From Escherichia phage PHB12, in sequence record MK524178.1: 64,000 nucleotides of DNA, one strand, 5' to 3'. Positions 7,441 to 42,892 of the stretch are shown piece after piece (position 1 is the first letter of the stretch; every line of letters starts with the position of its first letter). The notes beneath the pieces are model-generated. The model had not been told where the DNA came from. It worked only from the letters and a program-made list of their open reading frames with translations, and made no database searches. The translations under genes were made by a program, and so were the position numbers.

Positions 7441-7761
7441 TCAACTGTAACGATAACATTCGTTAGCTTTACGTTTGGCTTCAGTATGAGAAGTATTATA
7501 ATCATAATCTTCTTTACTGTAAACATCTTTTTTCAACTTACGAACTTCTTTGCGGAGTTGTCGATTCATTTCGTTCTTGACTTCAGAATCAACACCTTTC
7601 ATACGTTTCCATTTATCTGAGCGGAAGATGTTTTCAACCATGTCTTTGTGGCTAACACCGTCAGGAGCTTTACGCTTACCAAAATAGTCGTAATCGCGAA
7701 CTTTCAAATCTTTACGACGATATGTTTTACCCATAAGTACCTCAGAGGTTGATTGATACAA
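7441..7761 (-). CDS. hypothetical basic protein (possible nucleic-acid binding)
   Basis: 106 aa, very rich in Lys/Arg with acidic patches. Confidence 0.4.
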   Translation of the reverse strand: MYQSTSEVLMGKTYRRKDLKVRDYDYFGKRKAPDGVSHKDMVENIFRSDKWKRMKGVDSEVKNEMNRQLRKEVRKLKKDVYSKEDYDYNTSHTEAKRKANECYRYS

Positions 7762-11559: not shown

Positions 11560-12029
11560 TTTAAACTCTTTCTAAGCTGCTTTTTGAATGAAGCTATTAA
11601 TTGTGTTTTGGTATCAGATTCATTATATTCAAATCCTCTTTGAAGCATCTCAGCCATCATTTCCTCTTTACCTAGTCTTGAGAACTCTTTAGTTTTGTCT
11701 GGAACAAAATTAGGATGGATATTATTATCAGAATAATCTTGTTTCAAATAAGCAAGAAGAGCTTCAAGCCATTCTAAGTAGTCAACGTTTTGTCCTTTCA
11801 AACCGGAACGGTTGAACTTATGCTTCATTTGGCCTTCTGCTGCGTTGCACAGATTACAGAGTAACCCACGAACTCTACCTGCTTTTGGCCCGTTTAATTC
11901 GTGGTCGTGGTCAAGATGGTTACCTTGAACATCAGGGTCTAATTCACGGTGGCAAATAGGACACTTACCATTCTGTGCATCATAAAATTTTTGTTTTTCT
12001 TCTTTATATTTTGCGCCTGATAATAACAT
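11556..12029 (-). CDS. 49: endonuclease VII (Holliday junction resolvase) gp49
   Basis: 157 aa; MLLSGAKYKEEKQKFYDAQNGKCPICHRELDPDVQGNHLDHDHELNGPKAG... closely matches T4 gp49 as recalled. Confidence 0.85.
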   Translation of the reverse strand: MLLSGAKYKEEKQKFYDAQNGKCPICHRELDPDVQGNHLDHDHELNGPKAGRVRGLLCNLCNAAEGQMKHKFNRSGLKGQNVDYLEWLEALLAYLKQDYSDNNIHPNFVPDKTKEFSRLGKEEMMAEMLQRGFEYNESDTKTQLIASFKKQLRKSLK

Positions 12030-12367: not shown

Positions 12368-12703
12368 TTAACCGCGGAGCTTATTGAGCTCTTCATAATA
12401 AATCCAGGATTCTAGCCCAGACGGCAAATCAGATTCAACATTCCACAGAAGCTCTTCGATGGCTTGTAGGCGATTATATTCTTCAACAGTAATAGTAACC
12501 ATTGTTTCAGGCTTTTTAACCATCATGTCATTCATCAGAATGTACAGGTCTTCACAAACAGCCGGGTCGTCCCATGTCCATATTTCAGCATCTCGAACCA
12601 ATGAAGTCGGAATCGAATTTAAAACTTCAAGCTTAGTAGGAGCGTCAGGGCCGAGAAGAGTTGCTACAAATTTATATGCTTTGGCGAAATCAATATCGTT
12701 CAT
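12368..12703 (-). CDS. hypothetical protein
   Basis: 111 aa acidic ORF; 4-nt overlap with nrdC. Confidence 0.4.
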   Translation of the reverse strand: MNDIDFAKAYKFVATLLGPDAPTKLEVLNSIPTSLVRDAEIWTWDDPAVCEDLYILMNDMMVKKPETMVTITVEEYNRLQAIEELLWNVESDLPSGLESWIYYEELNKLRG

Positions 12704-12963
12704 TTAAAATATTCTCGCAGTTGGTCGAATCCACCAATATGACTTCCGTCAGGAGCAAACACTTGAGGCATAGTCAATCCGACTTGTGATTCACGTCCAA
12801 GCTTAACCAGAAGCTCAGCAATTTTCTCATCATCAAAAACACCCTTTTCTGGCATAACATTAATGAATTCGAATGGCTGTTTCTTAACAGTCAGCAATCG
12901 TTTCGCATTATCGCAATAAATGCATTTATGAATAGTAGAGTCGTACCCGTACACTTTAAACAT
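12700..12963 (-). CDS. nrdC: glutaredoxin/thioredoxin NrdC
   Basis: MFKVYGYDSTIHKCIYCDNAKRLL... with CxYC motif; 87 aa from internal ATG at 12961-12963, as in T4 NrdC. Confidence 0.8.
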   Translation of the reverse strand: MFKVYGYDSTIHKCIYCDNAKRLLTVKKQPFEFINVMPEKGVFDDEKIAELLVKLGRESQVGLTMPQVFAPDGSHIGGFDQLREYFK

Positions 12964-13369
12964 TATTTTTCCTTTCATCAATTAAATATGCAACGCCAAA
13001 TACAATACATGTAATAAAACCTGTGATACAGATAGAAACCAACAACACTGTACCAAAGAACCAAATCAAGTTATCTTTAGTAGTTTGTTTGATATCCATC
13101 TCACGAATTTCTATAGCTATCGTATCACCTTTATTCAGAAGCGTATAAAACGATGGCGATACACGCCTGTCAAAAACTCGACCTTGTTCATCTTTATAAA
13201 CTGCAATAAATTCCAATTTAGAATATTTTCCTGTAGATTGTCCTGAAATTAATTCCACTACCTCTACAGGAATTACTTTAGTTTCCATGTAAGTATTCTG
13301 GCTGTTCCAAATGAATGGAATGATGGCAAAAACTAAAGCTGCAATAAAACAACGAAGGCTATATCTCAT
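12956..13369 (-). CDS. membrane protein (two predicted transmembrane segments)
   Basis: 137 aa; hydrophobic N-terminal and C-terminal segments. Confidence 0.4.
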   Translation of the reverse strand: MRYSLRCFIAALVFAIIPFIWNSQNTYMETKVIPVEVVELISGQSTGKYSKLEFIAVYKDEQGRVFDRRVSPSFYTLLNKGDTIAIEIREMDIKQTTKDNLIWFFGTVLLVSICITGFITCIVFGVAYLIDERKNNV

Positions 13370-13674
13370 TATAATGTTCTCTCAAATTTGTGGAAGCATT
13401 TACGGCATTTCAATTTCAAGTTATCAGTGGTCCAGTTAACCAGTTGGACTTGGATAGTTCCACATTCCGGGCATGGATGTTTTGCTGCCGATTTGGCAGC
13501 ATTTTCACGTCGTTCAACCATTTTCATTATTTCGTTCCATGCCGGAGGAACGAACTCTTCTTCACCGTGGATTTTATCTCGCTGAACAAATTCAATCTTT
13601 GAACTATCGTCAATAAACTTAACCAAGCCATGATTAGTGCTCATATCAATATCCTCTAAAAGACGTAGTTTCAT
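13369..13674 (-). CDS. zinc-ribbon protein
   Basis: 101 aa; CPECG...CRKC four-cysteine cluster at C-terminus. Confidence 0.4.
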   Translation of the reverse strand: MKLRLLEDIDMSTNHGLVKFIDDSSKIEFVQRDKIHGEEEFVPPAWNEIMKMVERRENAAKSAAKHPCPECGTIQVQLVNWTTDNLKLKCRKCFHKFERTL

Positions 13675-14624
13675 TATAAAACCTCAATAGCATTTCGTAA
13701 ACCATCAGCTTTTGCATTCAGAGCTTTTAATGATTTAGTTTGTTCTGCAATCTGGGCTTCGACTTCTTTCAGACGAGATTTGAGATATTCGCGTTCTTCT
13801 CTTAAATTATCAACTTTTTCTACTTTAGTCTCTTTAATAGGCTTAGGTTTATACTCGTTAGGGTTCTTCAACTTAATTTGAATGCGAGAACTGTATAACA
13901 TTGAACCATTATCTTCAGTTTCATCATACATTTCTACCACGTCCATAGTCTGTAACATCATACGAAGTTTATAAGACAGCGAACGAACGGTTTTGTTGCG
14001 CTTATTAATTTCTTCGGCTTTCATGGTACCGAGATTACGTGAGTAGTAATAAGGAACCTGGATATCAATTGATAACGATGCAGCGCCATTACCGGTTGGT
14101 TTGAATACTGCAGTAACCCAATCTTTAACATGAACTTTATTTGTACGACCATCACCGCCTGTGAATAATTTACGTGAATGTTTAAAAAGCATATTCACTT
14201 GGTTATTGAATTCACAAGCAAATTTATCAGCAAATTTAGTTTCAGGAATGGTAGATAACCAATCAGCCAAATGAGTCTTTTTAACATCGTTAATAATAGT
14301 AAATTCAACCAAATCAGTTTTAGATGTCACAGATTTAATAAAGCTCGGCTTCATAAAGTTTTTAATGTTATCTCGAGCTACAGTAGAAGATAATAAACGA
14401 GAACGTTTGAACCATTGAAGCAGTGTCCCTAATGAATGAGAATACGCATTCTGAGTATCTTTACAGATATGATTTTCTTGGCCTGTGTATGTACCAAAAT
14501 CGCGAAGAATGCCACTTACTACAACTCGGTGTGGAACATCAAATCCTAATAAACCAGAAGCACGTTGGGCATGAACGTTAGCGATAAGACCTGCAAAATA
14601 ATCAACATAATGTGAACGTGTCAT
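13674..14624 (-). CDS. hypothetical protein with C-terminal coiled coil (first of three consecutive similar-architecture genes)
   Basis: 316 aa; C-terminal about 60 aa heptad-like (EEREYLKSRLKEVEAQIAEQTKSLKALNAKADGLRNAIEVL). Confidence 0.5.
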   Translation of the reverse strand: MTRSHYVDYFAGLIANVHAQRASGLLGFDVPHRVVVSGILRDFGTYTGQENHICKDTQNAYSHSLGTLLQWFKRSRLLSSTVARDNIKNFMKPSFIKSVTSKTDLVEFTIINDVKKTHLADWLSTIPETKFADKFACEFNNQVNMLFKHSRKLFTGGDGRTNKVHVKDWVTAVFKPTGNGAASLSIDIQVPYYYSRNLGTMKAEEINKRNKTVRSLSYKLRMMLQTMDVVEMYDETEDNGSMLYSSRIQIKLKNPNEYKPKPIKETKVEKVDNLREEREYLKSRLKEVEAQIAEQTKSLKALNAKADGLRNAIEVL

Positions 14625-14653
14625 AATATTTTCCTCTCGTTAAGATAGAAAGA

Positions 14654-14682
14654 TTATACTCCAACCATCCTTGGTTGTAAAC
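14654..14682 (-). promoter_or_regulatory. early promoter (GTTTAC-17-TATAAT) with hairpin in spacer
   Basis: Minus strand GTTTACAACCAAGGATGGTTGGAGTATAAT; spacer carries inverted repeat CAACCA/TGGTTG; near-identical copy at 15643-15671. Confidence 0.6.
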
Positions 14683-14686
14683 TGAT

Positions 14687-15616
14687 TTATGATTTTAATG
14701 CATTCATTGCATTAAAAAGTTTAGAGTATTGCAACTGGAGTTTGGTAACTACTTGTTGAGCATCACGAAGCTTAGCTTGTGCTTTGTCAAGTTCAACAGA
14801 CAGTTGGTCCACAGTGGCTTTGATTTGATTATAATAGTAATCTTCGGCAGGAAGAAGACCGTTAGAGATTTCCAGTTTAGTCGACGGTGTGCCGTTAAAC
14901 ATAACAGGTTGTGCTGAAGCTGCATTAATCTTACCGATAGTCGGGGCGACAATAATTGACGCTTCGAACGTTGCATTTTCCTTTTTAAGATTTTGATAGT
15001 ATTCAGAGTCTTTGTGCCACCATGGCGCAGGAACCTTTTTACCAATAGATACACGAGCCTGGATAGCGATATGGCCCTTATTCTTGATAACGTCGATAAT
15101 ATTAAGCTCACGAGAATAAATTGCTTTAATCTGGTGGATATTATCACCTAACACTTCCAACGCTTGGTGGAATACACGAGCAACGTTATCATTCTTAGGT
15201 TTATACGTAAGAGTGAACTCGTTCTCACTGATAACCATGATTTCTAACTTATCGTAAGTATATTTCAAATGTTTCATGTTAATTGCTTGAGGACGAATAC
15301 GAGAAGCAATGGCCATCAGATTGTTAAGGTTATTCCGGAACTGCTTAGCGAAATATTGTCCTTCACCGCCAATACAAAAATTACGAAGTTTCTGTTTGGC
15401 TAATAAACGGCTGAACTCACCATTTTTAATGAACTCTTTAACGGGTGTGTTAGTAACGCATTCAAATTGAGTAAACTTACGAGAAGTAATCCCATAATAT
15501 GAACAGATTTCCTCAATCTCTTCAGGAGTCTTTACAGGCATACGGATAGGATTAGGACCTGGGGTATATGCGTTAGAGGTAAATTCTTTGATAAGTTCTC
15601 TACGTGTAATAGCCAT
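14687..15616 (-). CDS. hypothetical protein with C-terminal coiled coil (second of three)
   Basis: 309 aa; C-terminal coiled coil (DQLSVELDKAQAKLRDAQQVVTKLQLQYSKLFNAMNALKS). Confidence 0.5.
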   Translation of the reverse strand: MAITRRELIKEFTSNAYTPGPNPIRMPVKTPEEIEEICSYYGITSRKFTQFECVTNTPVKEFIKNGEFSRLLAKQKLRNFCIGGEGQYFAKQFRNNLNNLMAIASRIRPQAINMKHLKYTYDKLEIMVISENEFTLTYKPKNDNVARVFHQALEVLGDNIHQIKAIYSRELNIIDVIKNKGHIAIQARVSIGKKVPAPWWHKDSEYYQNLKKENATFEASIIVAPTIGKINAASAQPVMFNGTPSTKLEISNGLLPAEDYYYNQIKATVDQLSVELDKAQAKLRDAQQVVTKLQLQYSKLFNAMNALKS

Positions 15617-15642
15617 TTTATATTCCTCATGTTGAAAAATTT

Positions 15643-15671
15643 ATTATACTCCAACCATCCTTGGTTGTACA
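15643..15671 (-). promoter_or_regulatory. early promoter with hairpin in spacer (copy of the 14654-14682 cassette)
   Basis: Shares TTATACTCCAACCATCCTTGGTTGTA with the 14654 copy. Confidence 0.55.
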
Positions 15672-16667
15672 TCATTCCTTAAGAAGTTTTACTACTTGAA
15701 TAAGATTAGCTCGTTCTGTTTTATTTTTACTGTTTAAGCCTGCTAATCGTGAGATTTCATCATCAGTCTGTTGAATAGTTACATTAAGTTCGCTAATCAA
15801 AGCTTCAAAGTATTTGATTTGCTCAGCATGTTTTGATTCAAATTTCTGAACCGGAATAACGTCCTGGTTTAGTTCATCAATAAGGTCTTTAAGAGCATCT
15901 TCTTGATTGATATCATATTCAACTTCTTTTATTTCTTCAACGAGCTCGTCTTTATATCTAACGTCTTTTAGTCCTGGTGATGGTCCTGAAATCTCTTCTT
16001 TAAGAGTACAAACATATCCAATACGGTATCCAATGCCGTCTCGCTTGATATCAACTTCGTCAATAAATCCACAATGTTTAAGACCAGAGCCGATTAGGTC
16101 AAAATATCCTTGACGTCGTCCTTCAAACGTTACACGAACTACTAAGACAGTTTTACCTGCAACCTTTTGAAGCTCACATTTATAAAAGTCTGTTGAACCT
16201 GAATAACGTGGATGAGTTTTAAAGTTCATCTGACGATCTAGGCCCATTTGTAAGCGTGCTGATACGGCCATAAAACGTGTTTGGTTCTCGTTAAGATGAG
16301 CAACAATCCATTTCAAAGGCATTTTACACTGTTCACGACCGAACAAATCAGTACGTCCTAGATTACGCAGGATGTTGTTAGAGTTAATCATCGACAGAAC
16401 GTTAAGTTTATTCAGCGCGCTGAAGATTCCATCGGCCATTGATTTTCCGTAACCTTTACACGCTTTAATAAGCGCTCGCGGTAGATTAGTATAAATTTCA
16501 GACGGCATATGAAAATCAAATTTACTAGTCAGTAATTGATGAACTTGGATAGCAATTTGCTCATAATTAAGTGCTCTGCGATCATTATGGTCTTTAAACC
16601 ACACTTTAATCTGTGAAGCACATAAACCGTTAATTTCATGTTTTACCGCATCAGATGTAATGCTCAT
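15672..16667 (-). CDS. hypothetical protein with C-terminal coiled coil (third of three)
   Basis: 331 aa; acidic linker then coiled coil (AEQIKYFEALISELNVTIQQTDDEISRLAGL...). Confidence 0.5.
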   Translation of the reverse strand: MSITSDAVKHEINGLCASQIKVWFKDHNDRRALNYEQIAIQVHQLLTSKFDFHMPSEIYTNLPRALIKACKGYGKSMADGIFSALNKLNVLSMINSNNILRNLGRTDLFGREQCKMPLKWIVAHLNENQTRFMAVSARLQMGLDRQMNFKTHPRYSGSTDFYKCELQKVAGKTVLVVRVTFEGRRQGYFDLIGSGLKHCGFIDEVDIKRDGIGYRIGYVCTLKEEISGPSPGLKDVRYKDELVEEIKEVEYDINQEDALKDLIDELNQDVIPVQKFESKHAEQIKYFEALISELNVTIQQTDDEISRLAGLNSKNKTERANLIQVVKLLKE

Positions 16668-16702
16668 AACTATTTCCTCAGATTGAATTGGAACTCAAAA
16701 CC

Positions 16703-16726
16703 ATTATAACCCGTCCTTGGGTAAAG
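16703..16726 (-). promoter_or_regulatory. degenerate copy of the CCAAGGA(T/C)GG promoter cassette
   Basis: CCATTATAACCCGTCCTTGGGTAAAG resembles the 14654/15643 cassettes but the spacer is shortened. Confidence 0.25.
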
Positions 16727-16729
16727 CGT

Positions 16730-17257
16730 TTATGCGTGAACCGTCTTTAAACGTTCTTCAAATTTCCGAAGAGTACTAATACGTTCTGCTTTCTGTTTTG
16801 TATAGTTTGCAATACGTTCTGAAGTGAGAGCGTATCGTTCGTTTACTGTTTCTTTCATGAAGTCAGGGATTTCACGAGAAGCTTTAATTTCATCAAACTT
16901 ATCGAGTACTGCCTGGTCTTCAGCGATTAAATTTTCGTACATCTCGATATCTTTCTTGATAAACTCGATATCTTCCTGGGTTACTTTGGATAAACGAGAT
17001 GCTTTATCCTTTTTGTACTGCTCGTTAGTTTCACGAGACCAGAATAATGTACGTTTTTTGTTAGTGTTTTTGTAGACTTCCACAATTCCAACTGAATCGA
17101 TGATAGCAATCCAATTCCAGTGAGATTTGAAAATCTGACCTCCGTCCACGGTAATCTCGTTACCATAAGCAACGTCATTAAAGAACTTGCTTTGTGCTTC
17201 AGATTTAAATTTACCGTCGTTATAATTTACCAGGTTGAAAATATCTTTAGCGTTCAT
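16730..17257 (-). CDS. hypothetical protein
   Basis: 175 aa; charged C-terminal half; GGAGG RBS upstream. Confidence 0.45.
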   Translation of the reverse strand: MNAKDIFNLVNYNDGKFKSEAQSKFFNDVAYGNEITVDGGQIFKSHWNWIAIIDSVGIVEVYKNTNKKRTLFWSRETNEQYKKDKASRLSKVTQEDIEFIKKDIEMYENLIAEDQAVLDKFDEIKASREIPDFMKETVNERYALTSERIANYTKQKAERISTLRKFEERLKTVHA

Positions 17258-17276
17258 GTTTTACCTCCAGTAGTTG

Positions 17277-17313
17277 ATAGGTCTATAATAACATAACCAT
17301 AGACCTTGTAAAC
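17277..17313 (-). promoter_or_regulatory. promoter-early stem-loop cassette (GTTTAC ... TATTAT with hairpin AGGTCTAT/ATAGACCT)
   Basis: Perfect 8-bp inverted repeat flanking the -10 region; GTTTAC at rc of 17308-17313. Confidence 0.55.
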
Positions 17314-17315
17314 AA

Positions 17316-17657
17316 CTAAAAGAAACTTTTTTCGGTATTTTTTCCACTGAACCAAGCGGATTGGGTAGTATTTTTCCGTTGGTGTTCGATACGAATGCGA
17401 TATTCATTCCTGATGGCGCAGAGTTCACCTCGGAAGTCGCCTGCCAACTTTACCTGCTTTCGGTCTAGATTTATTAAGGCCTGAGTCTTCGCGGCCAAGA
17501 GCAGTCTCTTGTAGTCTCCTTCTTCACAATCGGTTTTATAAACTCTATTGGTATATCCGTTGATAACTTCTTTATCATAGTCCTCGACGGATTGTTTCAT
17601 AGCTTTGGAAAAAGTCTGACCTGCGTTATAAAGATTGTAAATAAATTGTTCAAACAT
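17316..17657 (-). CDS. hypothetical protein
   Basis: 113 aa ORF. Confidence 0.4.
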   Translation of the reverse strand: MFEQFIYNLYNAGQTFSKAMKQSVEDYDKEVINGYTNRVYKTDCEEGDYKRLLLAAKTQALINLDRKQVKLAGDFRGELCAIRNEYRIRIEHQRKNTTQSAWFSGKNTEKSFF

Positions 17658-17667
17658 AATTTCACCT

Positions 17668-18669
17668 TTATTTCAGAAGTGTAACTTCAGAGATTTCCTC
17701 CCAACCGTCTTTATCAGTTGAAATAAAATCTGCTACATAAAGAGCCGTACGTAATGATACATTGCGAAGACGAGATACGTTAGCCTTCATCCAGGACAAT
17801 GCTTTATACGTTTCTGCATCTGTCAGACCACGTTTCTGCATCATGTCAGTAGATAATATTACATCTTCAACTCGAACCATAATCTCTTCATTAGAGTGTA
17901 CTCCAAGGTCGAGATACACTGAACGAGATACTAAAGCTTGAAGGTGCGGGGCAAGCTTCGAACCGCGTTCTAACTCTTTATCGATATCAACGTTTGTAAT
18001 GAAAACGATAGTACCTTCAAACACAAATTCTTTATCAATACCCTTATCATCGAGATAAGACGACGCAGTGCTCCAGCAAACTTTGCGTTTATCTCCAGTA
18101 TCTAATGCTGCTTTAAGAAGGTTCAAGATGTCCATATCCGAGAATACGTCAACGTCGTCGATTAAGAGAACGCTGTCTGCATCACGGTTGAGCCAAAGTT
18201 GTTCGTAAAGGCCTATACCAGAGATTTTACCATTAATGCTTTTGTATTTGATGAAACCGTTATCATTAGCATTATTAAGCGCTTTATCCAGAGAATACGT
18301 CTTACCAATACCTGCTGCACCTGAAATAATGAGTGAACGAATTTTGCCATCGATAATGCCATTCGTCATCATGTTCATTACTTTAAAGCGTTTGTTGATA
18401 CGAGTTTTCATATCTTCACTGCTTTCAACAACTGCAACTGGTGATGTCTCAGCTCCTTCCATTACGATGTCTGATTTGAAGACCCATACTCCACGTTCAG
18501 AACCATCAATCATAACGAAAATTTTACCATCACCTAAGTGGGAACATTCAGGATTAAGCTTTGCCGGGAACCATGTCTTTGTGGCAACATAAGAACCAGA
18601 GATTTCGTTATTACGATAGATACCTTTTTTGATTTGAACGTTGAACATTTTATTCTCCAATTTACTCAT
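17668..18669 (-). CDS. P-loop NTPase (Walker A/B) of unknown function
   Basis: 333 aa; Walker A GAAGIGKT and Walker B VLLIDDVD; about 100 aa N-terminal extension. Confidence 0.5.
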   Translation of the reverse strand: MSKLENKMFNVQIKKGIYRNNEISGSYVATKTWFPAKLNPECSHLGDGKIFVMIDGSERGVWVFKSDIVMEGAETSPVAVVESSEDMKTRINKRFKVMNMMTNGIIDGKIRSLIISGAAGIGKTYSLDKALNNANDNGFIKYKSINGKISGIGLYEQLWLNRDADSVLLIDDVDVFSDMDILNLLKAALDTGDKRKVCWSTASSYLDDKGIDKEFVFEGTIVFITNVDIDKELERGSKLAPHLQALVSRSVYLDLGVHSNEEIMVRVEDVILSTDMMQKRGLTDAETYKALSWMKANVSRLRNVSLRTALYVADFISTDKDGWEEISEVTLLK

Positions 18670-18679
18670 TTCGTTTCGA

Positions 18680-18715
18680 TAGGTCTATAATAACATGTTT
18701 AAAGCAAAAGTAAAC
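18680..18715 (-). promoter_or_regulatory. early promoter (GTTTAC-17-TATTAT), half-cassette
   Basis: ATAGGTCTATAATAACAT motif without the second hairpin arm; GTTTAC at rc of 18710-18715. Confidence 0.45.
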
Positions 18716-18717
18716 AA

Positions 18718-18936
18718 TTATTTGCGACGAGATTTTTTGGTAAGAGGTTGAAAGAACACTGCTTTACCTGCAGGAGTCAAAGTAACTCGTAATGCATTAC
18801 CGATTCCCAAGGATGCTTTAACAAGACCTTTAGATTTCAGTTCACCGAATGCTTGACGTTGGTCTGCATCACGAGTGTTAACCATAAGACCTTTATCACC
18901 AGCTTCACGAATCATTTCTAACATTTTGGTTTTCAT
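18718..18936 (-). CDS. small hypothetical protein (possible winged-helix fold)
   Basis: Track ORF 18718..18996 trimmed to the ATG preceded by GAGGAG (MKTKMLEMIREAGDKGLMVNTRD...); 72 aa. Confidence 0.4.
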   Translation of the reverse strand: MKTKMLEMIREAGDKGLMVNTRDADQRQAFGELKSKGLVKASLGIGNALRVTLTPAGKAVFFQPLTKKSRRK

Positions 18937-18964
18937 TTTGTTCTCCTCTTGTTTTGATAGGTCT

Positions 18965-18993
18965 ATAATAACATATCCTAAAAGCATGTACAC
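18965..18993 (-). promoter_or_regulatory. early promoter (TGTACA-17-TATTAT) with ATAGGTCTATAATAACAT motif
   Basis: Same cassette sequence family as 17277 and 18680. Confidence 0.45.
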
Positions 18994-19021
18994 CACTTTT
19001 TAAAAATATTTTGACCCCCTA

Positions 19022-19039
19022 AAGGGCCCGAAGGCCCTT
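19022..19039 (-). terminator. hairpin terminator candidate (GGGCC-UUCG-GGCCC on minus transcript)
   Basis: Inverted repeat 19024-19037 directly after the stop of the nucleotidyltransferase gene; short U-run. Confidence 0.45.
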
Positions 19040-19040
19040 A

Positions 19041-20030
19041 TCATTTATAGTACGAATTGTGGTTTTCTAAGTAGACTTGCTCAAGGAAATCATCCCAGAA
19101 ACTCATATCTACTTTTTGTTGCATACCGTTCTTGGCAGCTTGTTCTGATGCTTGTTCAACTTTGTCAACGATATCTTCTAGGAATTCTTGTACAGTTTTA
19201 AACGTATGTTTACCAAGCTTAACATCTAGAATAAATGGAGCATCCCGAAGTGGGTAAACCAGGTCGCCGGTTTTATAAATTTCTAATAGTTGAAGTCCAC
19301 CACGACATGCATGACTCAATGCTTTCCAGTCAATACCTTCGTTAGCTTCTGCCTTACGAGCACGTTCGCCATAGTTCTCTTCCAGTTTAACCAGGATGGC
19401 ATTGAACTCTTTATTGGTTAATGTGTCTTGGAATTTACGGTCTAACAGATTATAGAACGTTTGCTTACCTGTTTTCTCGTTTTCGGTTTCAACCCACGAA
19501 GCAAATTCACCTACGGGCAGAACATTCTTCATATGTGATAAACGAATTACTGCACCATTATCAAAGTATTGTCCCCATTCGTTAGAACGTTTAAGGGCTT
19601 GTCGAAGAACAGCCAGTCGAGAACCCTTGACACCATATTTAGAAGCTTGCTTACGGACATACCCTAAATAAGATTTCATGTTAGTAGTATAGAAACGAGA
19701 CCTGTTGTCTTGAATATACTTCCACACGTCAGGCAAATCAGATTTAACTACTAGACTTTGCGGAGTGTGAAGCATATCTAATGCGACAGTTTCACCATCC
19801 ATAGCTAGTTTAAAGAAATATTTGAGACTATACAACTCGTGGTCCACGTCGTCTTTTGTGTTCTTAGAAGATGTGTTATTCGTGTTCTTGCTCATGTGTT
19901 CTTTAACGTTACCAGTCAAGATATCACGAGCATGAGGGACATAAATTTCTTTAAAATCGACGTCAGATTCAGGAGTAGACGTTCCATAAAGGTGACTACC
20001 AAAGTAGCCTTTCATAATTGTTTTCATCAT
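19041..20030 (-). CDS. predicted Pol-beta-superfamily nucleotidyltransferase
   Basis: 329 aa; N-terminal motif GYFGSHLYGTSTPESDVDF (hG[GS]-x9-SDxD); 4-nt overlap with the upstream membrane-protein gene. Confidence 0.5.
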   Translation of the reverse strand: MMKTIMKGYFGSHLYGTSTPESDVDFKEIYVPHARDILTGNVKEHMSKNTNNTSSKNTKDDVDHELYSLKYFFKLAMDGETVALDMLHTPQSLVVKSDLPDVWKYIQDNRSRFYTTNMKSYLGYVRKQASKYGVKGSRLAVLRQALKRSNEWGQYFDNGAVIRLSHMKNVLPVGEFASWVETENEKTGKQTFYNLLDRKFQDTLTNKEFNAILVKLEENYGERARKAEANEGIDWKALSHACRGGLQLLEIYKTGDLVYPLRDAPFILDVKLGKHTFKTVQEFLEDIVDKVEQASEQAAKNGMQQKVDMSFWDDFLEQVYLENHNSYYK

Positions 20031-42796: not shown

Positions 42797-42892
42797 CTCA
42801 AAAACGCTTTAATAAAAATGCAGTATAATGGTTTTAGGTCTCTTCCATTAATCCGGTTCAACAGAATATCAGAAGAACGGAAGAGAATAGAA

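Follow-up and report, generated by a model that had tools for sequence, protein, structure and literature searches.

Escherichia phage PHB12 carries in its nrdC region three consecutive genes, here named wA, wB and wC, whose products are alike in length and outline but hardly in sequence. This raises the question of whether they are copies of one gene or unrelated neighbours, and what such a set of genes does for the phage. They were studied in a stretch of 64,000 nt of the PHB12 sequence (record MK524178.1), called the window below. Its DNA is 96-98% identical to that of many RB69-like phages, and the source is an RB69-like (Mosigvirus-type) T4 phage. An earlier note on this DNA, made from its letters, described three consecutive open reading frames (ORFs) with an N-terminal domain and a C-terminal coiled coil, each with its own promoter cassette, and took them for a serially duplicated or diversifying array. 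The ORFs are found at exactly the positions given there (wA, 13674-14624; wB, 14687-15616; wC, 15672-16667), all on the minus strand, and encode polypeptides of 316, 309 and 331 amino acids. We find that the three genes are very probably ancient, deeply diverged tandem paralogs that form one superfamily with T4 nrdC.3, nrdC.4, nrdC.5 and nrdC.6; this superfamily is small and restricted to T4-like phages.

Identity of the three genes

Sequence comparisons assigned each ORF to a T4 gene of the nrdC block. wA is the ortholog of T4 NrdC.3, with 56% identity over the full length (BLAST, E 8e-116). It belongs to phrog_1435 (E 9e-104) and probably to Pfam family PF26897 (Phage_T4_Y04OP), the latter assignment being precomputed for the representative of its cluster (P0025) and for more than 30 close homologs. 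The cluster that contains wA at 90% identity also includes NrdC.2 proteins of 101 amino acids. As nrdC.2 and nrdC.3 share one base in the window, this is probably a clustering artefact that arose where the genes were called as fused or overlapping. wB is a DUF7235 protein and a distant homolog of T4 NrdC.5 (Y05A, DUF7235/PF23882; Srikant, Guegler & Laub 2022, eLife, PMC9391042). It is 24% identical to NrdC.5 (BLAST, E 1e-11) and likewise a full-length member of DUF7235, with residues 14-308 matching positions 1-307 of the 307 in the PF23882 profile at 374.5 bits (E 6e-112), above the gathering score of 30 bits. wC is a distant homolog of the T4-type NrdC.6 proteins, to which it is 29-33% identical with E values down to 4e-33 (29%, E 3e-19 for T4 itself). 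It belongs to phrog_2257 (E 3e-127), and its cluster representative P0020, which is 98% identical to wC, carries PF26899 (Phage_T4_Y05B). The three sequences are identical to the PHB12 proteins QBP05705 (wA), QBP05706 (wB) and, for wC, the third of the QBP05705-7 set. On close relatives, PF26897 covers NrdC.3 and NrdC.4, PF23882 covers NrdC.5 and PF26899 covers NrdC.6, and each of the three genes has a PHROG of its own, with function unannotated. Each gene matches a T4 gene, and all fall within one poorly characterised family; T4 NrdC.3, NrdC.4 and NrdC.6 are uncharacterised early proteins, and no NrdC.4 is present in the window.

All genes of the region are on the minus strand; nrdD comes first, followed by gene 49, nrdC and the nrdC.x genes. 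As with T4 NrdC.5, wB lies in the nrdC-nrdC.8 block between homologs of NrdC.3 and NrdC.6, on the same strand and with an early promoter. The flanking genes are far better conserved between the window and T4 (NrdC 92%, NrdC.8 82% and NrdC.10 77% identity) than the array genes (56%, 24% and 29% for wA, wB and wC), so the array is a local divergence hotspot. Scans with PADLOC and NCBIfam gave no significant match, and no domain match to enzyme or DNA-binding families was obtained for the array proteins in Pfam, PDB-sequence and NCBIfam searches. Rfam and tRNA scans of positions 12500-19500 were empty.

Remote homology of the NrdC.3-NrdC.6 proteins

BLAST comparisons among wA, wB and wC gave no match at E < 1. 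At this level the earlier statement that the N-terminal domains are not obviously similar stands; at the profile level it does not, the domains being homologous though very remote. T4 NrdC.3 and NrdC.4 find each other by BLAST (E 1e-5). When 24 family members from eight genomes were aligned together, several common motifs became apparent, namely an N-terminal M(K)TRxxY/I, the sequence F-K-x-G-x-LS-x3-A-x3-L-x-NF, the sequence F-x3-F(R/N)-x5-L-x3-A(S)RL, and KP(V/I) immediately ahead of the terminal helix. HHalign was run on the N-terminal domains after the last 62 residues had been cut, so that coiled-coil composition cannot drive the score. NrdC.3 matched NrdC.4 with 95% probability (P 2.5e-8), and NrdC.4 matched NrdC.5 with 91% probability (P 1e-6).

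Among 1.84 billion representative proteins, a profile search found 24 matches, all of T4-phage type except P0222. Six of these are distant full-length members, which map to Karamvirus, Kanagawavirus, Marfavirus and Pectobacterium T4-like phages. P0222, a repeat protein of 511 amino acids that shares one short motif, was rejected as a false positive. With the distant members added, the NrdC.6 branch matched the NrdC.5 branch (95%, P 2e-8) and the merged NrdC.3/NrdC.4/NrdC.5 set (96%, P 1e-9), the latter with the motifs in register, and NrdC.5 matched NrdC.3 plus NrdC.4 (97%, P 2e-10). Controls with reversed or shuffled columns reached a best P of 0.13. One Karamvirus gene was matched by both NrdC.6-like and NrdC.3/NrdC.4-like queries, and a Foldseek search with the structure model of wC returned proteins of about 300 amino acids from Karamvirus, Klebsiella and Acinetobacter T4-like phages. 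The same search with the wB model (described below) found the RB69 ortholog only and was uninformative.

From the HHalign links between N-terminal domains, the shuffle controls, the bridging Karamvirus gene and the Foldseek matches we regard wA, wB and wC as paralogs of ancient origin. The earlier proposal of a serially duplicated, diversifying array agrees with these links and with the steep drop in identity to T4 inside the array. Pfam already joins NrdC.3 and NrdC.4; the addition of NrdC.5 and NrdC.6 rests on the present profile comparisons and was not found in the literature searched. That unrelated orphan ORFs were placed side by side by modular shuffling and acquired their coiled-coil tails independently would suit the lack of pairwise BLAST similarity, the non-significant direct HHalign comparison of the NrdC.6 family, the three separate Pfam families and the mere 9-16 identities between paralogs over the C-terminal 55 residues, yet this alternative is already disfavoured and very unlikely, given that the coil-free N-terminal domains match at P 1e-6 to 1e-10 with the same motifs aligned (controls P ≥ 0.13), that intermediates from other genera bridge the branches, and that length, domain order and predicted secondary-structure order are alike.

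Domain organization

The layout that emerges for each protein is an N-terminal domain of mixed alpha/beta type, some 170-250 residues long and with three conserved motifs, then a variable, probably disordered linker, and a terminal helix of about 50 residues. wB shares this order of N-terminal domain, linker and C-terminal coil with T4 NrdC.5, from which it differs in being 30 residues shorter and in lacking an internal segment. In wA the C-terminal heptad coiled coil spans residues ~265-316 (13677-13832, minus strand), with a best heptad window of 0.86 that none of 200 shuffled sequences reached, and the weak Pfam and PDB matches of this C-terminal stretch are only to coiled-coil families. 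The long helix or coiled coil of wB spans residues 257-308 (14693-14848, minus strand; heptad score 0.88, again reached by 0 of 200 shuffles). For wC a long helix is predicted at residues 281-330 (15678-15827, minus strand), but its coiled-coil character is uncertain, as the heptad periodicity was not significant in shuffle tests (p 0.18-0.43). The coiled coil that the earlier note assigned to all three proteins is thus present in at least two of them, wA and wB. A profile search against PDB sequences gave weak coiled-coil matches only (E 0.055 or worse).

AlphaFold2 (AF2) models were made for wB and wC from a family of shallow depth with incomplete homolog retrieval. The wB model was poor, with a predicted local distance difference test (pLDDT) value of 45; it contains one confident helix at residues 257-308, a block with pLDDT 67-91, and the remainder is below 50. 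The wC model was of moderate quality (pLDDT 64; predicted template modelling score, pTM, 0.53) and shows, in order, a helical bundle, a beta-hairpin/alpha/beta unit, a low-confidence linker at residues 227-279 and the helix at residues 281-330, which is single and continuous with a pLDDT of about 77. As weak evidence, the predicted secondary-structure order of wB is compatible with that of wC. Comparison with the T4-type orthologs gave identities of 31% for the N-terminal domain versus 60% for the C-terminal part in wC, and of 27% versus 40% in wB. Judged by these alignments, change within an orthologous lineage has been more rapid in the N-terminal domain than in the C-terminal helix.

Promoter cassettes

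The 14-mer CCAACCATCCTTGG was found exactly twice, at 14661 and 15651. Both copies lie inside a perfect direct repeat of 27 nt (14653-14679 and 15643-15669, spacing 990 nt) that flanks wB. Repeat copy 1 belongs to cassette 1 (14653-14682, minus strand), a predicted early promoter for wA of the form GTTTACA-N17-TATAAT that agrees with the sigma-70 consensus at 11 of 12 positions. Repeat copy 2 belongs to cassette 2 (15643-15671, minus strand), the predicted early promoter for wB (TGTACA-N17-TATAAT; 10 of 12 positions), and the spacer is 17 nt in both. Sites of the type GTTTAC-N17-19-TATAAT occur five times in the window, against 0.03 expected. In cassettes 1 and 2 the spacer between -35 and -10 holds the hairpin CAACCA-AGGA-TGGTTG (6 bp, -6.9 kcal/mol).

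The earlier note had given every gene such a promoter-hairpin cassette. This is borne out by the exact repeats at 14653 and 15643, but the third cassette, which the note regarded as a degenerate copy, appears to be of another type. Cassette 3 lies upstream of wC (16703-16727, minus strand; GCTTTA-N13-TATAAT), has the core CCAAGGACGG and a weaker hairpin (CCCA...GGGT), and is not within three mismatches of the 14-mer. Its spacing is wrong for an early promoter, the -35-like element being only 11 nt from TATAAT; by its layout it fits a MotA-box middle promoter instead. The T4 MotA box has the consensus (a/t)(a/t)TGCTT(t/c)A and stands about 12 nt upstream of the -10 element. The site in cassette 3 reads aaaCGCTTTA-N13-TATAAT, with C in place of the first base of the TGCTT core. 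The pattern GCTTYA-N11-13-TATAAT occurs at five sites in the window versus 0.2 expected, and these candidate middle promoters are located at 1265-1288, 7478-7502, 11622-11646, 16703-16727 and 42806-42829. A cassette orthologous to cassette 3 follows nrdC.8 in T4 and VR20. The core CCAAGGATGG is present in 10 of the 12 related loci compared, in intergenic promoter cassettes where these were inspected, and would fold into a small hairpin in the spacer that separates the -10 element from the -35 element or the MotA box. Given the recurrence of this core in promoter cassettes, we take the unit of the array to be a cassette plus a gene, about 1 kb in length. A terminator scan found nothing at the cassettes.

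The closest known counterparts are the promoter-early stem-loops (PeSLs) of the hyperplastic regions of T4-type phages (Arbiol et al. 2010, PMC2839356; Comeau et al. 2014, PMC4122927). In the T4/PST form their early promoter reads TTTACW-N17-TAYWAT (PMC2839356). Similar to PeSLs, the cassettes described here are short intergenic repeats that combine an early promoter of the sigma-70 type with a stem-loop and surround non-essential genes of a hyperplastic region. Unlike in PeSLs, the 6-bp hairpin sits inside the promoter spacer and is not an adjacent G/C-rich, terminator-like stem, nor does it have the AGNA-loop-TCNT form of the PST and T4 elements. The MotA-box layout of cassette 3 resembles the PmSL variant reported for phage nt-1.

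Two further features of the non-coding DNA were noted. A second cassette family, distinct from CCAAGGATGG, occurs at 17274-17332, 18676-18734 and 18954-19012 (minus strand GTTTAC...ATGTTATTATAGACCTATCAA), upstream of the NrdC.8 homolog, the NrdC.10 homolog and a small ORF; its copies are 64-75% identical over 59 nt, and a -10 element lies within a strong hairpin at 17258-17330 (-21 kcal/mol). In the leaders of wA and wB (14625-14652 and 15617-15642, minus strand), predicted minimum free energy folds pair the Shine-Dalgarno sequence GAGG in a small hairpin just upstream of the ATG. Such leader hairpins could serve translational control or be a target for an RNase.

Gain and loss of array genes

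The number of paralogs varies from one to four among relatives. T4-type phages have four, the window has three, Gaprivervirus has three of a different set, and CC31, Marfa and PEi20 have one each. A synthetic junction was built by removing wB together with one cassette copy from the window sequence and was then matched to phage records. In 22 records, counted regardless of kinship, the wB-less junction was matched in one piece with 95-98% identity, so that this locus indeed belongs to a variable region of T4-like genomes, as had been supposed. Among the phages without wB are F2 (MN864145), AV116 (OR352946) and p000v (NC_055781). Phage F2 has a single chimeric cassette, flanked on the left by the wA leader and on the right by the 3' end of wC, both matching base for base. 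The end points of this gene-sized insertion or deletion (indel) thus lie inside the repeats, as in PeSLs, for which indel formation by repeat exchange has been described (PMC2839356). We consider it likely that the wB polymorphism arose by exchange between the two 27-nt copies, or by the reverse insertion. A base-precise, cassette-bounded indel of wB was not found in the literature searched.

Alternatively, the repeat could be incidental, and the polymorphism could be an ancestral difference or stem from insertion by other means, for instance through a homing endonuclease or by illegitimate recombination. Deletions in T4 often form at short microhomologies wherever these occur (PMC9391042), and in phage ACG-C40 a deletion joined nrdC.5 to nrdC.3 within the coding sequence, without involvement of cassettes. 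Against such an origin, which we regard as unlikely, the F2 junction falls exactly inside the 27-nt repeat and is the product expected of an exchange or reverse insertion, no endonuclease gene is present within the array, and the mechanism is documented for PeSL cassettes of T4-type phages (PMC2839356, PMC4122927). ACG-C40 retains only NrdC.6 and remnants of NrdC.5 and NrdC.3 after an out-of-frame deletion of 2.7 kb, which left an nrdC.5/nrdC.3 fusion inside the coding sequence (locus L002, 6805-7213). Unequal crossing-over between the paralogs was considered for this remnant and rejected, as the joined parts are in different frames and do not meet at homologous positions.

Proposed role in counter-defence

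For one member of the superfamily a phenotype has been established by experiment. A deletion mutant regains the ability to plate on cells with the sirtuin defence gene dsr1 of ECOR17 when T4 nrdC.5 is expressed in trans (PMC9391042). Two other genes of the nrdC block were linked to defence systems in a 2025 preprint (bioRxiv 10.1101/2025.11.20.689424), where Septu is reported to be inhibited by nrdC.1 and Druantia III by bas37_0203; the supplementary gene table of the preprint lists the latter as a gene of 175 amino acids in the NrdC.8 position. The window has a gene of 175 amino acids directly upstream of the array (16730-17257, minus strand) which is 82% identical to T4 NrdC.8 and corresponds to bas37_0203 by size and position. 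This NrdC.8 homolog is probably another anti-defence gene. The window is without nrdC.1, the reported anti-Septu gene, and without nrdC.4, and the gene order of its block is shuffled.

Beyond the paralogy, architecture, cassette repeats and indel demonstrated above, we infer an anti-defence role for wA, wB and wC, to which we give an even chance, and a binding mechanism by which it would be exerted. A counter-defence arms race fits the array on several grounds: the promoters are of early or middle type, the family is found in T4-like phages only, the N-terminal domain diverges fast, and copies are freely gained and lost. The proteins would be non-essential early or middle accessories that neutralise anti-phage defence systems of the host. 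Binding to a particular defence protein would be the task of the fast-evolving N-terminal domain, and oligomerisation of the inhibitor that of the more conserved C-terminal coil; different paralogs or alleles would cover different defence variants. Since the cassettes contain short exact repeats, they probably act as recombination sites at which genes are gained and lost, as seen for wB. An analogy, though nothing more, is provided by DSAD1, the DSR2 inhibitor, described as a small phage protein that blocks a defence-associated sirtuin NADase by direct binding (PMC10973363, PMC10981675). No relation to DSAD1 in sequence or structure was found; Dsr1 and DSR2 are different proteins, and unlike DSAD1, NrdC.5 is known from genetic rescue.

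The genes could instead be real paralogs that serve as host-takeover or housekeeping accessories, acting on the nucleoid, transcription or nucleotide metabolism, with the Dsr1 phenotype of NrdC.5 being indirect. In keeping with such a role, the published evidence for NrdC.5 consists of genetic rescue only (PMC9391042), the neighbours nrdD, nrdG and nrdC are nucleotide-metabolism genes, and the accessible HIDEN-SEQ data of the preprint show no conditional phenotype for nrdC.3, nrdC.4 and nrdC.6. A conserved host target should constrain the sequence, yet the orthologs are only 24-56% identical compared to 77-92% for the flanking genes, and copies are freely lost among natural isolates. The preprint data score nrdC.3-nrdC.6 as non-essential on K-12, specific anti-defence phenotypes are reported for three other genes of the block, and, as noted above, the array proteins have no domain match to enzyme or DNA-binding families. 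We rate a non-defence role as rather unlikely.

On balance we favour, with some reserve, the explanation as a whole, that is, a diversifying array of anti-defence paralogs with cassette-bounded gain and loss. Several observations pull the other way. The wC (NrdC.6) branch joins the family significantly only once the distant members are added, direct HHalign comparison of NrdC.6 with the other families being not significant when only close relatives are used. The AF2 models of wB and wC are weak, and the heptad periodicity of the wC helix is not significant. With a hairpin of only 6 bp and no U-tract, the cassettes are unlikely to act as terminators in the manner of classical PeSLs, and cassette recombination is not the sole route of gene loss, because the deletion in ACG-C40 used no cassettes. 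In HIDEN-SEQ, the accessible data show no significant conditional fitness effect for nrdC.3-nrdC.6 or bas37_0198-0201. Finally, wB may differ in target even from NrdC.5, as it is just 24% identical to this sole member with an experimental phenotype.

Gene remnants and neighbouring genes

Traces of decay were seen in several related genomes. In phage Pinarejo an unannotated C-terminal stub of nrdC.6 (locus L003, 7001-7135) is the only part of the family that is kept, and in phage G8 nrdC.4 is split into two ORFs (locus L007, 8950-9982). NrdC.6 of the T4 reference genome (NC_000866; locus L001, 10067-10894) has 275 amino acids and an aberrant C-terminus (…ELIFLFNNMMMKFSDYLD), whereas the proteins of T4T and most Tequatroviruses have 295-296 amino acids and end in the family helix. 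From this comparison of sequences, the T4 reference appears to lack the C-terminal helix owing to a frameshift or an error in sequencing. A 489-kb contig labelled E. coli contains a T4-type nrdC block in full (GCA_025336695.1, JAODFN010000001.1, 16238-29248); the likeliest explanation is a chimeric assembly or contamination by phage DNA, not an integrated element.

Two neighbours of the array in the window differ from their T4 counterparts. The ORF for NrdC (12700-12981, minus strand) has a TTG start and 93 amino acids, compared to 87 in T4; its real start is probably an internal ATG (MFKVYGY…), as the T4 protein aligns from residue 7. The homolog of NrdC.7, a membrane protein, is encoded at 12956-13369 (minus strand) between nrdC and nrdC.2, whereas in T4 it lies between nrdC.6 and nrdC.8.

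Implications

Neither the genes nor the hyperplastic region nor the idea of such cassettes is new. What the wB polymorphism contributes is a clean natural case of cassette-bounded gene gain or loss in this group of phages. A more far-reaching and tentative idea is that NrdC.3-NrdC.6 form a modular counter-defence scaffold, in which a conserved coiled-coil stalk would oligomerise a hypervariable N-terminal 'warhead' directed at a different immune protein in each paralog or allele, with Dsr1 as the first known target. Modules of about 1 kb might then be swapped via the CCAAGGATGG cassettes, and the nrdC.1-nrdC.8 block would be an exchangeable anti-defence island that sets the host range of T-even phages.

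T-even phages rank among the foremost candidates for phage therapy, and which hosts they infect depends on accessory genes of unassigned function. Natural isolates with and without wB suggest themselves as ready, isogenic-like pairs for the comparison of host range. Joining the four 'hypothetical' T4 genes nrdC.3-nrdC.6 and their RB69-type relatives with a proven anti-Dsr1 member provides a testable function for some 3-4 kb of dark matter per genome.

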